Positions 1 through 61,350 of a stretch of DNA of 64,000 bases are shown here, piece after piece. The DNA is taken from sequence record NC_041936.1; one strand, 5' to 3'. Numbering within the stretch: position 1 is the stretch's first letter; each line of letters starts with the position of its first letter. The notes under the pieces are model-generated. The model made no database searches. It worked only from the letters and a program-made list of their open reading frames with translations, and was not told the origin of the DNA. The DNA is from Escherichia phage ECD7. Made by a program: the position numbers and the translations under genes.

Positions 1-1434
1 TTAAAATTTAACATTCTTAACCAGTTTCATAAAGTCTTGTGCGCGTTTGTCGTTATGCAGAATACGATACCAGTTATCTACAATATCATACAGTAACGGG
101 CTATTCTCTTTAAACTTCGCACAAACTGCTTTAATTCGTTCGTTTGCTGCCGTGAATTTTTCGTCACAGATCTTTTTAGTTTCTTCGTCCATAATCCAAC
201 GAGTACGAAGGAGTAACTTGGAAACCTCTTTATTATAATGACGACCGTACAGTCTGTCAATAAATTCTGGAACACAGCGTTCTAGTTCATCGTCATGAAA
301 CAACATAGTGATCACACCCAGATATTCGCCATACCCCAGATGATTGGTCTTAACCTTCTTAGCCAGACCAGCCAGCTTACCGCGAACAAATTCTAGCGCA
401 CATTCCAATTGTTCGTCAACGAGATATTTTTGTGTCTCGTTTCGAGTAATAATATACTTTGTTACCCCGAAGTAGTCACGCGCCGTGTGTAATGTATTTT
501 CATTATAGATCGATTGACGGCTACGGCTTTCGAATGCATCACCTACGCGGAACATGTGCAAGCCTGATAACTCGCGAATCTCTGCCGCTTTCATGTGATG
601 GCTGGTTTTATGCCAACTGTCACCAATCTTTTCCATGATATACACGTTAGGCAGCTTGGGAGTAGCTTCACGTTGTGTACGCTCGGTCTTCTCCGGCTTA
701 ACTGCTTTAGCACGCAGATCATCGGCCTCTGATACCTTAATCACGGTCATTTCAGAATCATCATAATACTGTTTGATGTACTCGAAAGTCTCCATATGTT
801 TTTCGTTTTTCTGACGGAACACCAGTACCTTTTTATTGATGCCGTATTCCTGGACCATGCCGTTAAGAGTCAGTGCACGCAGTTTCGGTTTATCGGTGTC
901 ATCAATAAGACACGTAATATCTTCTTTATGCATCCATACAAAATGCGTAATGTTATATTGACTGCTAACGAAAGCAGGGCGCAATTTACTGATTGTGTGA
1001 CGAGTACGATACAGAGTATACACCTGACCTTCTACGTCATTTGGCGAATCTTTACCCGCATTCACAAACTTATTATAGATTGCTACCGGATCATCCCACT
1101 GTCCGATCTTACCCATCTTGCTAATAATATTGCGTTGCGTCGATGAATACTCGCTCATAAATTGCGCAAGTTTACGCTCTGTTTTAATGTTGGCGATCTT
1201 TTCTTTAACCTTTTCCAACATCATTTCATTGATTTCTGCAATGCGTTTTTCGATGTTCGCTTTAGTCTCAATTGACAAGTGAACTTCTTCACGCGATGGC
1301 ATCAGGTCCAGATCACCCAACTCAAAATTAATGTAAATGGTCTGGTGCTGGCGGTTTACAGCTTCTAACCATGTTCCGCGAACATATTCATACGGGATCG
1401 GATACTGGATCTTACCCATGATTGCATATACCAC
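1..1434 (-). CDS. rIIA: rIIA, C-terminal portion (same reading frame as 1498..2109; stop TAA at 1-3)
   Basis: Translation resembles T4 RIIA central/C-terminal region; track start is GTG at 1434 but frame is open up to the TAA at 1498-1500. Confidence 0.8.
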   Translation of the reverse strand: MVYAIMGKIQYPIPYEYVRGTWLEAVNRQHQTIYINFELGDLDLMPSREEVHLSIETKANIEKRIAEINEMMLEKVKEKIANIKTERKLAQFMSEYSSTQRNIISKMGKIGQWDDPVAIYNKFVNAGKDSPNDVEGQVYTLYRTRHTISKLRPAFVSSQYNITHFVWMHKEDITCLIDDTDKPKLRALTLNGMVQEYGINKKVLVFRQKNEKHMETFEYIKQYYDDSEMTVIKVSEADDLRAKAVKPEKTERTQREATPKLPNVYIMEKIGDSWHKTSHHMKAAEIRELSGLHMFRVGDAFESRSRQSIYNENTLHTARDYFGVTKYIITRNETQKYLVDEQLECALEFVRGKLAGLAKKVKTNHLGYGEYLGVITMLFHDDELERCVPEFIDRLYGRHYNKEVSKLLLRTRWIMDEETKKICDEKFTAANERIKAVCAKFKENSPLLYDIVDNWYRILHNDKRAQDFMKLVKNVKF

Positions 1435-1497
1435 ATACGCATCATTATCGCGACCATTACAAACATAATAATTATCAAAGCTAGGGAAATAATTAAT

Positions 1498-2109
1498 TTA
1501 GATTGCGTTGATATTAGGCTTATGTTCCCCAAAATGACGCAGTACAAACTGTGCTTCTCGATGCCATGTCTGAATGTCTTTTTCTTTCACCGGAATAGTG
1601 ATTTTCAGACCATTGTCTTCATAGGTCGGATCGTCGAAAATCTGCACCATTTTCGGCATAGAGTTTTGCACAAATGCCGTAAAGCCATAAGCGCGACCAT
1701 TGTAGTAGTTTACGATTGTAAAGGTGTCGGTGTAACTATAAGCAGACTTCGCACCCAAACCAAAAGATCCGATATAATCATTAGTTTGGTCTTTTGTTGA
1801 TTCAAAGTAAACCGTAAACAATTGTTCTAATTCTTTCTTAGACGGAATACCAGTACCATAATCACGCACAGAAAAATACGGTTCGATTGCAGTTGGTAAA
1901 TGAATATCAAACGGACGATCTAAGGTTCCTGCTTCTTTGTGAGTGTCGGTAGCATTGCACGAATACTCACGGACGCAAGCACGTTCACAATATTGATAAG
2001 TGTTCTTAGAAAGCACCATAAAAGCCTTGCTACTTGCTTTCAGTGAAAAATCAACCGCACCGCTCAGGTCACTGCCAAATACTTCTTCATTATCGATATG
2101 CATTTTCAT
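1498..2109 (-). CDS. rIIA: rIIA N-terminal GHKL-ATPase-like portion, ended by in-frame TAA at 1498-1500
   Basis: 203 aa with GSFGLGAKSAYSYTDTF region resembling RIIA N-terminus; ATG at 2107-2109. Confidence 0.8.
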   Translation of the reverse strand: MKMHIDNEEVFGSDLSGAVDFSLKASSKAFMVLSKNTYQYCERACVREYSCNATDTHKEAGTLDRPFDIHLPTAIEPYFSVRDYGTGIPSKKELEQLFTVYFESTKDQTNDYIGSFGLGAKSAYSYTDTFTIVNYYNGRAYGFTAFVQNSMPKMVQIFDDPTYEDNGLKITIPVKEKDIQTWHREAQFVLRHFGEHKPNINAI

Positions 2110-2123
2110 AATATAATCCTCAC

Positions 2124-16548: not shown

Positions 16549-18025
16549 TTAAATGTCAAACAGGTCCGTAAGCGATGCCACCTTTTCATATTGCAGCTTT
16601 GCAGCCGTGGTAATGTTCTCCAGTGGTTTGACGAAAGTCTTATTAAACAACAAAGGCCAGTCTAACCACTTCAACACTTCTGATTCAATTTCTGGCGGAA
16701 TACGAGTACCAGACAACCAACCAAAACAGATTTCTCCAAACGGATTTCGATCTTTAAGCGGTACAATCATAACCTTCTCGCCTTCACGAATCGGATCTAG
16801 TCCGAATTTTCGAGCATTACGATTATAACACAATACACTCTTAACCGCATACGGACAACCCTTAATCGGATACCCGTTTGAATCGCTGTATTTCTGTAGG
16901 TTGTTTGCAGATGATACCGCAGCAACCTCAAGATAATCAAGTTTTCTAAACTCTTGCTCAAAAATACCGTAGTATTCCTGTAGCGATTCTTCCCCTTCCT
17001 GCAACATACGGCGAATACATTCTTTCAGTGATTTCTGACATGCTTTAGGGGTGGAGCTACGTTGCGTTTCCAAGCCCATGATTTTTAGCTTAGGTTCAGC
17101 AAAGCGCGTTCCTTCCATATCCCAAACATTAAGAGCATAACGCTTTTTACCAGTCCAGAATCCACCGATACCCGCAGATTTCAACGGAGGACCAGCAATT
17201 GCCTCACGGTCCATAAACATCAAGTGCTCATAGTTATTCATGTACTCGCATAACTCGCGATATCCCTTGTCGATAATAGGTTCCATTCGATGTTTACCGA
17301 AATTATCAAGGAAGTCAACAAGTTTTTCGGTATCGTCGAAACGGTCTTCCCCGCCAACCTTATCAACAACATTGTTAACCAGCACATAAACGGAGTCAGT
17401 ATCACAATAACGAACATATGCAAAATCAGTTGTTCCGCAAAGCTCGTTTAAGTATTCGTTAATCTTACGCTCAATCCACTGAATTGCAAGCTGACCAAAC
17501 AGTGTGATCGCACTAGCGTTACGGAGATCATAAAAACGGAATTTAGGATTCCCCAACGCACCATAAAGGGAGTTGATCAAAACTTTACGAGAAAGCTGGT
17601 TTGTATTGCACAAGATCGACTCGTCTTTACATTCTTCCAGCAATTTCTCTAAGGCATCTTTACTTAATTCAGAAAGCATCGATTTAAACGCTTCGTCAAA
17701 GTCGTGACGCACTTCAACGCTATAGCTAATGGTTCCCCCATAAACATGATTTTCATCGTGTAGAATCGCTTTACATAGTTCAGCATTGCGATCACATGCC
17801 AGCATCATATTTTTGTACTGCTTACGCTGATCAAATACCTTTTTAATCTCAATAGGTACGATACCATGAATATCTTTTCGATACATCCACCCGTTAGGCG
17901 AGCAAGAATACTCATCACTCGGACGTGGTGCAGTTTTATTGATATATTCGTGCATCGGTGCAGCATCAAAAGATCCAGCGATTGTTTCAGGCGAAATATT
18001 AACCTGACGGATGATTGATGGATAC
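16549..18025 (-). CDS. 43: DNA polymerase gp43, exon 2 (motif A YPS onward; palm/thumb)
   Basis: Frame open from 18025 (YPSIIRQVNISPET...); LINSLYGALGN, YCDTDS, KKRY motifs; stop at 16549-16551. Confidence 0.9.
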
Positions 18026-18165: not shown

Positions 18166-18990
18166 TTACCCTTTCGATAGTCGTTGAACAACTGCATCTT
18201 TAAGCTCATTTTGATCAAACGGTGTTCTCTTACAGTACCCGCTATAATTCTTGGCAAAAGGTTTCTTCTTACCAAAGATCTCTTTTCCTGAATTATGTGC
18301 TTCAACAAGAAAATTCACCATTTCATCAAATGTGAAACTTGTAAATTTAGCATAAGTTTCATTACGTTTTGACATTATTTTACTCATAACTTCCGGTCGT
18401 TTAGACGCTGAATTTTCGCGCTTCTCGCCAGCATTAAATGATACTAACTCACCGGAAACATATCTAGGATCATCACAACTAACTCTAAACCGATTTCCTT
18501 CCTTATCCTTAACGATAACAGTATTCTTTAGCTTTTCTGCCATAGAATCAAGACCTTTTCGTATAGTGTCCTCATCAGCCCCGAAATATTTCTTTCCGCT
18601 CATATCGGTTCTGGCTTTTCCGGTCTTGTTTTCGGATATTTTCAGTCTAACTTCCTCTCGCTTGGCTGGGTTATTGTCTCCAGCGAATGCATCTTTGGTT
18701 AACGCCTTCACTTTATCGTCATAAGATCCTCTAGAGATGAAAGCATATGCTCTCTTGCATTCACCGTTATTGAATATTAAGCACAATAACCGATGCGCCT
18801 CGACGTGGTCTTCAAACTTAAGCCTAACAAGATTCCATTTATCTAACCGATATTCAGGGAACATTGACTTCGGGCATATATGATGCACCTCGGAATATTC
18901 TTCACCCTGATACGGATTAGACACCAGTTTAATGTAGTCGTTTAATGCTTCCTCGTTATGTATTTCGTACTTTCTTAAAATGTCTTTCAT
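18166..18990 (-). CDS. intron-encoded HNH homing endonuclease
   Basis: HNH motif EVHHICPKSMFPEYRLDKWNLVRL...HVEAH; ATG at 18988-18990 preceded by GGAGG. Confidence 0.8.
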   Translation of the reverse strand: MKDILRKYEIHNEEALNDYIKLVSNPYQGEEYSEVHHICPKSMFPEYRLDKWNLVRLKFEDHVEAHRLLCLIFNNGECKRAYAFISRGSYDDKVKALTKDAFAGDNNPAKREEVRLKISENKTGKARTDMSGKKYFGADEDTIRKGLDSMAEKLKNTVIVKDKEGNRFRVSCDDPRYVSGELVSFNAGEKRENSASKRPEVMSKIMSKRNETYAKFTSFTFDEMVNFLVEAHNSGKEIFGKKKPFAKNYSGYCKRTPFDQNELKDAVVQRLSKG

Positions 18991-19035
18991 CTCGCGCCTC
19001 CAATGTATATCAATATTTATATACATTATAAGACA
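18991..19035 (-). promoter_or_regulatory. T4-type late promoter (TATAAATA) and RBS for the intron endonuclease
   Basis: Minus strand TATAAATA (plus 19024-19031) about 33 nt upstream of the HEG ATG. Confidence 0.5.
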
Positions 19036-19139
19036 CGTTAGCTCAAAATGCAACTGCTGCTGATTGTCTCCTTAGAGATTTCCCAGCAATTAAGCAGGTT
19101 ATTCGATCACTGTCACCAGTGAAAGCCCCATATCAGTTT

Positions 19140-20341
19140 AGGGAAGTAAGGTCAAAGCTCATCATCCAACGATAAGCATTAGGTACTGGCTCTTTTACGA
19201 ATGCGCCAGGATAAGTCTGCTTAGGCTGTATCTTGTTCTCTGGTACTACTTTACCCTCAGCTTTCAGAGATCCGAAGATAATAGCATCCCATACTTTCAT
19301 CGGGTTATAAACATGGTTAAATTTAATCTTTGCATAGAAACATAGACTATACACCAGATCGATAAATCCACGCTTTTTATCAATCGCCAGCACACGATCA
19401 ACGTCGCCGATGTTATAATCGATGTAAAGTTGATGATTGTCATCACGCAATTTCTTTAACGGACCATCATAATCAACCTTACCGATTCCTGTCTCATATT
19501 CAGCAACATAATCTAACGCATATGTTGGTTGAGTCGTAAAGCTAAATTTCTTGTACAGGTCAATATAATCAAGGCTTTCGATCCCCATGATCGTAAATGC
19601 TTCACGCTCGTTGCCAAAATCATCCTGTGAGATTCTGGATTTAATCTTACCGCACGGGCTTAGACGGTTAGCGGTTCTACTTCCGAACTTATTACTGATA
19701 CGTTTAATGATATATGGAATATCGAATGTTTCTGTGTTCCAGCCAGTGAAACCAACGGGTCGGTTTTCCTCAAAGAATCGGATGTATTCTAACAGCAATT
19801 CATCTTCTGTGTCATAGACGTTATAAACAACGCGCTCTACAATATCAGGTCGAAGAATAGACTTGCTTGCTTCCCAGATTTCACCGTTTTTTCCTTTCAA
19901 ATCAAATACAAAGAAACGATCATGTACGGAATCATAATGCGTAATTGCATCTATAGGATATTTCGCTTCTTCTGGTTTAGGAAATTCTGGGGCAGTGACC
20001 TCAATATCAACCCATGCTACACGGATTTTATTTCGGTCATATCGAATCTCTCCTTTATACGTATCGGACAGATAGGAGATGATAAAATCATCCATCCCTA
20101 GTGCCTCTTGCCCCATCTCCCCCATCTTTTTACGCCATTTGTTGGCCTCGTTCATAGATGGGAATTTTTTAGCAATGCAAGGCTTGCCGTAGATATCTTT
20201 ATAATTCGTAACCATACCAGGCGCGGCATGATGAAATAAAGTTGGCGTATATTCAACGTAACGCTCTTGTTCTTGTCCAGCATCATCAATATAACGCTCG
20301 TAGATCTTATCACCCACTCGCTCACATGACAGAAAATACAT
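19140..20341 (-). CDS. 43: DNA polymerase gp43, exon 1 (N-terminal and 3'-5' exonuclease domains to motif A)
   Basis: ATG 20339-20341 with AAGGAG SD; ERYIDDAGQ, FDIPYI, ends FDLTSL at splice site. Confidence 0.9.
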
Positions 20342-20364
20342 AATATAAACTCCTTCACTTACGA

Positions 20365-20405
20365 AAGACACTCATTATAGGGGAATCGACTTAGTTTGTC
20401 AATAC
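20365..20405 (-). promoter_or_regulatory. sigma70-type early promoter upstream of gene 43
   Basis: Minus: TTGACA-17nt-TATAAT, with GGGG/CCCC inverted repeat flanking the -35. Confidence 0.5.
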
Positions 20406-32094: not shown

Positions 32095-32919
32095 TTACCA
32101 TCCTCGCTCTTTACCAATCAAAAATTCAACTTCACGACGTTTAATGTCTTCTTGAAGGTCTTTAATCTTCTGTCGATCTTGCATGATTTCATCCATCTTG
32201 TCAAGTGCCGCAATGAAATCATCGAAACGTTCAAAGGTTTTACCTTCATTTGCTTCGCCAAATTTAACCATTGTCAGGCCGTAACGACTACTAAACAGAC
32301 GTTTCAACTGTCCAACGATCTTAGAATCAGTGGTTATAACTTCCAATTCTTCTACTTCACGAAAGAATTTTCTATCAGAATCAATAAACCAGCTAGTTCC
32401 TTTATGGTCTCTATCTTCGGTTGCGCTCATTAGAGTATGGTCTTTACCATCAATTTCAATTACATCAATTTGCCCACATGGACTAACATTTTTAACAGTA
32501 AAAGGTCTATAATTTATTGCTCGTGCAATAACATAATTAAGGTTAGATACGTTTTCAGCATAATGGCAGAAGTCGGTCATAGCATTCGCATCTTTCCAAG
32601 TATAAGTTTTACCAACTTCCCATTTCTGGGGAACTTCTTCAACTTCACGAAAGAATTTTCTATCGAATGGACTAAAGAAATATGTTGCCGTCCAAATGTC
32701 TTTTCCTGTAGCAGTTTTCGCCGTATGATAAACACCGTCTAGCTCTATTGCATCAATCCAACCGTTACCCTCGATCTCGATGATGGTAAATGGCTTGTCA
32801 CCAATAGCTGCACTGATATCGCTGTTAAGTGGAGAAAGAACACCTTCTCCGTTAGTAATAAACTCAGTTTTAGCGTTTTCGTCTTTCCAGGTGTAAGTTT
32901 TACCAATTTCCCATTTCAT
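32095..32919 (-). CDS. paralog-family protein (two tandem copies of the domain)
   Basis: WEIGKTYTWKD...IELDGVYHT...DRKFFREVEE repeated twice within 274 aa. Confidence 0.6.
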   Translation of the reverse strand: MKWEIGKTYTWKDENAKTEFITNGEGVLSPLNSDISAAIGDKPFTIIEIEGNGWIDAIELDGVYHTAKTATGKDIWTATYFFSPFDRKFFREVEEVPQKWEVGKTYTWKDANAMTDFCHYAENVSNLNYVIARAINYRPFTVKNVSPCGQIDVIEIDGKDHTLMSATEDRDHKGTSWFIDSDRKFFREVEELEVITTDSKIVGQLKRLFSSRYGLTMVKFGEANEGKTFERFDDFIAALDKMDEIMQDRQKIKDLQEDIKRREVEFLIGKERGW

Positions 32920-32931
32920 AATATATTCCCC

Positions 32932-33417
32932 TTAACCGATTTTATCAAGTTCGTTTAATGCTTTCTCTGCTTCCTGTATAGCTTGCACCCTTTCCGGCAT
33001 TTTGTCAAGAAAATCTTTCAACTCTTCAAAACTGGAGATATGACGCAAGGCGTTAGCACCGATAGCCGCATGTGATTTACATTCAAAGCGGATTTTATAA
33101 TTATCCATCGCCAACTTGAGAAGATCTATTAGATCATATTCATGACCAGGCAATAAAACTTCTTTGAAGCACGCTCGGTCGCCATCGGAAAACCATATAT
33201 TATCACCAACATCGATAGAACTAATATAATCCCCTTCGTGATTATAGATTGAACGTACATTACCCCAACGGTCTACAGTAGCGACAGTAAATGGTTTATC
33301 TAGATATGTAAACACACCATCAATATTAGGTTTTTGTTTGTAACGCCAACAATCACGCAAAATGCGCTTTTCGTCCTCACCAACCAACTTATATGTCTTC
33401 CCTTCTTCCCATTTCAT
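32932..33417 (-). CDS. paralog-family protein
   Basis: MKWEEGKTYK...; probable ATG at 33415-33417. Confidence 0.55.
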   Translation of the reverse strand: MKWEEGKTYKLVGEDEKRILRDCWRYKQKPNIDGVFTYLDKPFTVATVDRWGNVRSIYNHEGDYISSIDVGDNIWFSDGDRACFKEVLLPGHEYDLIDLLKLAMDNYKIRFECKSHAAIGANALRHISSFEELKDFLDKMPERVQAIQEAEKALNELDKIG

Positions 33418-33456
33418 AATATCATCTCTCATTTTTGATACGTGATTCTAATTGGA

Positions 33457-33948
33457 TCATACGGTCGCGCGTTTGCTTGTATTCGCGGATAGCACCGATT
33501 CGGCTAGGCATACCATCCAGTACGCTCTTAATCCTTCTAGGGTAGTGATTTTAGCAATGCTATTATGTAACCCCATCTTATCGGTCAACTGAATGTCGTA
33601 GGCTTCCATAAGCAGACCCAGACGTTCTAAAGTTAGGTCTTCTTCTTTTTCTTCCGATTCTGGAATCTTAGGTTCAATAGTAACTTCGGTAAAGAAACGA
33701 CGCTCACCCGACCAAAACCACACGCCGGAACAACCAATAGGGGATTCTTTTAACGTCATAGAGTCGTAACCACTGCCGATAATAGTAATTTCTCTAACAT
33801 CACCATCATCGTCAAGGTCTTCTACCCTAAACGGGCGACCAGCCAACAAGTCAACAATACATCTGTTAATAGACGACGAAAATTTAGTCAGTTCGGCTTT
33901 CGACGCTTCGCATTCAATCTTGTAAGTTTTACCAACTTCCCATTCCAT
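33457..33948 (-). CDS. paralog-family protein
   Basis: MEWEVGKTYK... with GAGGTG SD; ATG 33946-33948. Confidence 0.55.
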   Translation of the reverse strand: MEWEVGKTYKIECEASKAELTKFSSSINRCIVDLLAGRPFRVEDLDDDGDVREITIIGSGYDSMTLKESPIGCSGVWFWSGERRFFTEVTIEPKIPESEEKEEDLTLERLGLLMEAYDIQLTDKMGLHNSIAKITTLEGLRAYWMVCLAESVLSANTSKRATV

Positions 33949-60959: not shown

Positions 60960-61202
60960 TCATAGATCACAGAGCCATCTGAAAGCACCACATAAAGCGA
61001 GCAGAATACTAGGTATAAACGAGACTAAAACAAGTTGGCAAAAATCATCTAAGGTAACACCGGAATAGCTACCTACTGTAACAACACCGATCATCAGACA
61101 CAGAAAGAAAACAAATGCAATCAGAAACAAAGTATTGCTAAACAGTTTAGTGATCATTAGACACCCCACGACGATCAATTTCAAAAACTTTTTTATCATC
61201 AA
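60960..61202 (-). CDS. small hydrophobic membrane protein
   Basis: 80 aa. Confidence 0.4.
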   Translation of the reverse strand: MMIKKFLKLIVVGCLMITKLFSNTLFLIAFVFFLCLMIGVVTVGSYSGVTLDDFCQLVLVSFIPSILLALCGAFRWLCDL

Positions 61203-61350
61203 CGAAGCATGTCACAACTGCCTCGTTGACTTCCGCAAATTGTTGTGTTACCCACTTAAGGTCAGAGCGAAACAATGTTCTATTAATAACAAATGTTTTA
61301 CCGCTCTTATCCTTACCCATAAATTTTGCTTTAACCATATCCAATTCCAT
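61147..61350 (-). CDS. hypothetical protein
   Basis: 67-aa ORF. Confidence 0.35.
   Translation of the reverse strand: MELDMVKAKFMGKDKSGKTFVINRTLFRSDLKWVTQQFAEVNEAVVTCFVDDKKVFEIDRRGVSNDH

Follow-up and report, generated by a model that had tools for sequence, protein, structure and literature searches.

Rereading of the window (the whole 64-kb stretch of DNA analyzed here) indicates that the rIIA gene of an RB49-like phage is cut after 203 of its 702 codons by one base change, from GAA to TAA. The explanation that we prefer, and consider probable rather than assured, is a real, single G-to-T transversion in a Krischvirus phage, by which the Glu204 codon of rIIA (GAA) became an ochre codon (TAA). 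The allele would be an ordinary and probably recent knockout (or else a base-call error), i.e., an instance of a textbook kind, and it entails no new gene arrangement. The features on which the analysis is based are collected in Table 1.

Table 1. Coordinates of the features of the interrupted rIIA locus and of a second private lesion in the window.
Feature	Position	Strand	Remarks
Complete rIIA locus, interrupted once	1..2109	-	702 sense-codon positions, then the final TAA (3..1)
Shine-Dalgarno sequence GAGGA of the native rIIA start	2117..2121	-	ATG at 2109..2107; duplex with the 16S 3' end, -8.3 kcal/mol
203 still-translated codons, predicted N-terminal GHKL (Bergerat-fold) ATP-binding domain	1501..2109	-	phrog_612 and AlphaFold2/Foldseek
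In-frame ochre codon TAA, codon 204, next base A (TAAA)	1498..1500	-	GAA (Glu) in relatives
21 in-frame sense codons after the stop, containing no ATG, GTG, or TTG	1435..1497	-	Part of the predicted linker coil between domain 1 and domain 2
Mechanical ORF from GTG226 to the stop, remainder of rIIA	1..1434	-	No ribosome-binding site of its own; predicted untranslated or nearly so
175-aa hypothetical gene with private frameshift	~33,420-33,948	-	Last ~35 codons out of frame relative to Cognac

Identity of the rIIA Locus

The first 2400 nt of the window, which comprise rIIA and two upstream genes, match 57 GenBank phage records at 97.4-98.3% nucleotide identity, and all 57 belong to Krischvirus, a group of RB49-like phages of the T4 type whose hosts are E. 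coli and Shigella. Over 25 kb of the window, the best match is about 98% identical. By these similarities, the window is the start of a Krischvirus (RB49-like) genome, and its position 1 coincides with the rIIA stop codon, which is the customary start of T4-type genome records. One 2109-nt CDS fills the rIIA interval in RB49, Phi1, JSE, G2494, MIZ6, 011D4, and Cognac, under the names rIIA, RIIA lysis inhibitor, or membrane integrity protector; the two small upstream genes are likewise shared. The partner gene, rIIB, lies past position 1 of the window; in MIZ6 and 011D4, it is found downstream of rIIA, after a 132-nt ORF.

Translation of the minus strand from 2109 to 1 yields 703 codons with stops at codon 204 and codon 703 only. 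The first-pass annotation had delineated two ORFs here, 1498..2109 and 1..1434, and had placed them in one reading frame, separated by a sole stop, the TAA at 1498-1500. In the ORF list, both are on the minus strand, with 203 aa (starting with ATG) and 477 aa (starting with GTG), respectively. The arithmetic (2109 - 1434 = 675 = 3 x 225) and the translation agree with this description, the interval 1435..1497 consisting of 21 sense codons. The two sides had also been described as colinear with RIIA, and comparison with the RIIA profile of the PHROGs collection (phrog_612, 725 positions) leads to the same result: the 203-aa N-terminal piece aligns to positions 1-201 (E = 1.9e-96), and the C-terminal piece of 498 codons, past the stop, aligns to positions 206-725 (E = 3.7e-84). 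Because the N- and C-terminal pieces are colinear on the profile, with no part missing or duplicated, they belong to one gene.

A BLASTP search recovered 296 RIIA homologs with E <= 1e-10, of which the named ones are annotated as RIIA, and 118 of the best 120 of these 296 are a single protein of 650-817 aa. Identity to the named proteins of Serratia, Acinetobacter, and Enterobacter T4-type phages, among the matches listed, is 27-30%. The locus is an rIIA gene by descent; as written, it is a disrupted allele, in which the uninterrupted ORF characteristic of RIIA is lost.

The Ochre Codon and Its Status in Related Phages

At codon 204, the translated sequence reads ...KPNINAI up to the stop and INYFPSFDNYY... 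after it. Comparison of this codon with that of related phages, as suggested by the first-pass annotation, gave GAA (Glu) and an uninterrupted rIIA CDS in each of the seven relatives that were read directly (Cognac among them). For a check of this base across the genus, a 121-nt piece centered on the codon was searched twice, once as it stands in the window and once with the G restored. Restoring the G gained one matching base in 57 of 57 GenBank Krischvirus records, and we infer G as the first base of codon 204 in all of them. These comparisons bear out the first-pass view of a point nonsense mutation in one gene, rather than of two genes.

GAA also occurs at this codon in one IMG/VR contig and in one 168.7-kb metagenome contig, which were the only matches in scans of IMG/VR and metagenomes for the flanking pattern with any base at the first codon position. 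An exact-pattern scan of IMG/VR for the TAA allele returned no match, and none of the three possible truncated products was present in a collection of 15 billion proteins (exact look-up); therefore, the allele has no independent sighting. Given G in about 60 relatives and T here, the difference is a G-to-T transversion of the coding strand that is private to the window, equivalent to a C-to-A change at position 1500 of the plus strand, where the window has A and the relatives have C. The single-base difference between a sense codon and UAA, by which an rII ochre nonsense mutant is recognized, is thus found at this site. The T4 late-promoter motif (TATAAATA) is not created by the G-to-T change, as compared by eye (6 of 8 matches only).

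Age of the Lesion and Accuracy of the Sequence

Ten rIIA substitutions are private to the window among eight aligned sequences: seven are synonymous, two are missense (E160D and L544R), and one is the nonsense change. Codon differences between the window and Cognac number 42 synonymous and 9 non-synonymous in rIIA, as against 855 synonymous and 362 non-synonymous in the 115 ungapped genes of the window. By these counts, purifying selection on rIIA has been at least as strong as on the average gene. In view of this selection and of the mostly synonymous private changes, the stop is either very recent or not real. A long-standing pseudogene is ruled out on the same grounds, i.e., the mostly synonymous private changes and an rIIA that is more constrained than the window average. 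The 121-nt piece around the stop is just 90-96% identical to relatives; a mutational cluster around the stop was considered and rejected, and the piece is a polymorphic patch in which the window carries the Phi1 haplotype.

We consider it unlikely, if far from negligible, that the phage truly has GAA and that the deposited T is a base-call or assembly artifact. Such an error would account for a change that is private to one sequence as against about 60 relatives, for a TAA allele that is missing from all collections searched, and for strong purifying selection over the rest of rIIA, as in an intact gene. However, consensus substitution errors are generally rare in deep phage assemblies, and a random error would have a ~3% chance of falling in rIIA (2109/64000 nt) and a few-percent chance of producing a stop, whereas a real rIIA mutation would be neutral or favored during laboratory propagation. 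Moreover, of the 127 genes of Cognac, 121 have a plainly intact counterpart in the window, and none besides rIIA contains an in-frame stop.

The remaining point on the side of an error is that the window has a second private, disruptive difference, the loss of one nucleotide near 33,532. Relative to Cognac, the deletion is at about 33,532/33,533 of the plus strand (GAAGGTATT to GAAGG-ATT), at a site that is not in a long homopolymer, and 12 of 12 sampled relatives have 121 nt in a span for which the window has 120 nt. The deletion reflects either a further loss of gene function or an error in the sequence, and two private lesions in 64 kb would fit a passaged stock that is shedding accessory functions as well as a record with a few errors.

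Other Observations in the Window

In tblastn, the 175-aa protein of Cognac also matches the window at 33,417-32,947 and 32,625-32,353, and the frameshifted gene is therefore part of a small tandem paralog array (32,353-33,948, minus strand). In the gene 43 region, also on the minus strand (16,549-17,955, 18,166-19,053, and 19,133-20,371), two polymerase ORFs are arranged around an ORF of ~295 aa, as they are in Cognac. Two CDSs named DNA polymerase are likewise found in most of the matches listed in the 25-kb search. It has been suggested that gene 43 of JSE, a relative, carries a putative group I intron (PMC2993671), but an Rfam scan of the whole 64-kb window, including the gene 43 region, gave no match at gathering thresholds. 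A 33-aa annotated ORF of Cognac (61,078-61,179 there) is divided between two frames at 61,251-61,350 of the window (minus strand), its size being too small for interpretation. Three window genes have no stop right after their last Cognac-aligned residue, and their C-termini thus differ from those of Cognac. All matched genes of the window are on the minus strand.

Predicted Structure and Function of the Truncated Product

The structural context of the stop was examined in an AlphaFold2 model of an intact, 99% identical Krischvirus RIIA (P0001), built with a 48-sequence alignment (mean pLDDT 85.8). The model has an alpha/beta unit at residues ~27-190, with a helix (residues 176-190) as its last element; residue 204 is in the coil that follows (residues 191-213), ahead of a second, beta-rich unit. 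When the whole model was compared with the PDB using Foldseek, the best matches were full-length GHKL ATPases of the Hsp90 family (TRAP1, HtpG, and GRP94; E down to 6e-15), followed by Topo II, GyrB, and MutL. A weak match to HATPase_c_3 at residues 77-140, below the Pfam cut-off, agrees with the Foldseek result. The organization expected of RIIA, a GHKL-like N-terminal domain together with further domains in one polypeptide of ~700 aa, is present in the intact model. A sequence search of the PDB for a solved RIIA structure gave nothing significant.

The resemblance of the full-length RIIA model is to whole Hsp90-family chaperones, and it extends beyond the isolated GHKL domain. An Hsp90-like fold may bear on the mechanism of RIIA, a long-standing puzzle.

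Position 204 varies across the family alignment (D/E/N/Q) and falls within an indel-prone stretch, and the family-invariant residues Y236, F262, R273, and E274 are all located past the stop. In the GHKL ATPases Hsp90, GyrB, and MutL, a catalytic residue of the ATP site is supplied by the second domain. By analogy with these enzymes, the free 203-residue domain may be capable of nucleotide binding at best. As the Hsp90-like middle and C-terminal parts would be lost, and these invariant residues with them, the model and the analogy lead us to expect an rIIA null allele.

Translation Downstream of the Stop

The first-pass annotation had also allowed for a natural split of rIIA, with an independent start for the C-terminal part. 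Such a split was looked for in the relatives and is absent from them, and no Shine-Dalgarno sequence was found past the stop. A naturally split gene was therefore rejected: the stop occurs in 0 of 57 relatives, the downstream part has no Shine-Dalgarno sequence, and the homologs are single proteins. At the candidate restarts, the energy of the Shine-Dalgarno duplex with the 16S 3' end is +0.3 kcal/mol (GTG226, position 1434, 63 nt downstream) and -2.8 kcal/mol (ATG231, position 1419), compared with -8.3 kcal/mol at the native rIIA start; an independent restart of the downstream part is rejected in view of these energies and of the distance.

ARAGORN identified no tRNA genes in the whole 64-kb window, and for RB49, phi1, and JSE the tabulated number of tRNA genes is 0 (PMC2993671). 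TAA is the commonest terminator, ending 66 of 116 window genes (14 of them in the TAAA context), and recoding or codon reassignment is rejected, TAA being the main terminator of the genome. No known readthrough signal was seen at the stop. The conserved stop that would be expected of programmed readthrough is likewise missing, as no stop is present at this site in 57 relatives, and rIIA is alone among the 127 Cognac CDSs in having an in-frame stop in the window. Taken together, the lack of an independent start or ribosome-binding site, the lack of tRNA genes in the 64 kb, and the prevalence of TAA as a terminator leave a natural split, readthrough, and recoding unsupported.

We regard as very improbable any reading in which the stop is tolerated or used, be it through low-level ochre readthrough or suppression by the host, with some full-length RIIA made, through reinitiated, cooperating N- and C-terminal polypeptides, or through a positively selected loss of RIIA. 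The site itself is the most permissive one for a split, as the coil here joins two predicted domains and is both variable and prone to indels, and selected loss has a precedent in the rIIB loss alleles that escape a gasdermin/CARD defense (PMC10312443). Nevertheless, the split is found in no relative and the top homologs are single proteins (118 of 120, 650-817 aa), the C-terminal part has neither a Shine-Dalgarno sequence nor a nearby start, tRNA genes are missing from the window as from RB49-type genomes, and TAA is a standard terminator here, its TAAA context included, with no known readthrough signal seen. The specific case of a real TAA that was positively selected, in which loss of full-length RIIA (with the free GHKL domain perhaps kept) would evade an RII-sensing host defense by analogy with that precedent, seems to us just as improbable.

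Likely Origin and Implications

If the transversion is real, as we prefer, ribosomes would stop at TAA-A, and the product would be a fragment of 203 residues with the N-terminal GHKL ATP-binding domain only. The remaining 498 codons, which encode the Hsp90-like middle and C-terminal parts with the R273/E274 block, would receive no useful translation, since the nearest canonical start in frame lies 63 nt past the stop and lacks a Shine-Dalgarno sequence. The predicted rIIA null would be fully viable on ordinary laboratory hosts, would have no defense against Rex-type prophage exclusion, and would possibly show rapid lysis on B-type hosts. Its likeliest origin would be a recent spontaneous mutation that became fixed by plaque purification or passage on a Rex-free host.

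In the laboratory, rIIA is famously a dispensable accessory gene. Spontaneous r mutants arise at a frequency of 1e-3 to 1e-4 (PMC6832632), and transposon insertions in T4 rIIA and rIIB are neutral unless RexAB is present (bioRxiv 10.1101/2025.11.20.689424). Similarly, knock-down of divergent rII modules in five phages was without effect in the absence of Rex and lowered plating on RexAB cells (PMC11879866). Losses have also been recorded directly: an rII deletion reached fixation during experimental evolution of T4 (PMC9391042), the escapers selected by a gasdermin/CARD defense system were loss-of-function rIIB alleles (PMC10312443), and a T4 stock from a culture collection carries an rIIA-rIIB fusion (PMC8594841). 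Given this published dispensability and these cases of loss, a spontaneous rIIA nonsense mutation that passed through plaque purification on a Rex-free host would be unremarkable.

For annotation, rIIA should be treated as a single gene that is disrupted, whether labeled a pseudogene or a nonsense allele, instead of two genes. The stock would be expected to act as an rIIA mutant, for example by being excluded by Rex-carrying lysogens, which would affect tests of host range or therapy, and, if the base is confirmed, the phage would provide the RB49 group with a natural rIIA null that is ready for use. The value of the ochre finding is practical; it has little novelty and opens no new biological question.

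Comparison With Known Systems

The closest counterparts are the ochre nonsense mutants of T4 rIIA, which are classical from the work of Benzer and of Brenner and colleagues. Like these, the present allele has a one-base UAA inside a T4-type rIIA, with the rest of the cistron intact and in frame, and rII is dispensable on Rex-free hosts. Unlike these, the present phage is a Krischvirus, and its allele, read from the sequence, was apparently not isolated on purpose.

The intact rIIA genes of RB49, Phi1, JSE, Cognac, G2494, and other Krischvirus phages share with the window the position at the start of the record, the length of 2109 nt, and the neighboring genes. They differ from it at codon 204, which is GAA in these Krischvirus genomes and TAA here, and in the two further private missense changes of the window, E160D and L544R.

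A third comparison is with rII loss alleles found in T4 and T6, namely an rII deletion in T4 (PMC9391042), escapers with a frameshift or stop in T6 rIIB (PMC10312443), and a T4 rIIA-rIIB fusion (PMC8594841). These, too, represent rII damage in propagated stocks with viability on the standard host retained; in contrast to the present allele, they come with a documented selection or history, and the lesion described here is in the rIIA of a different genus.
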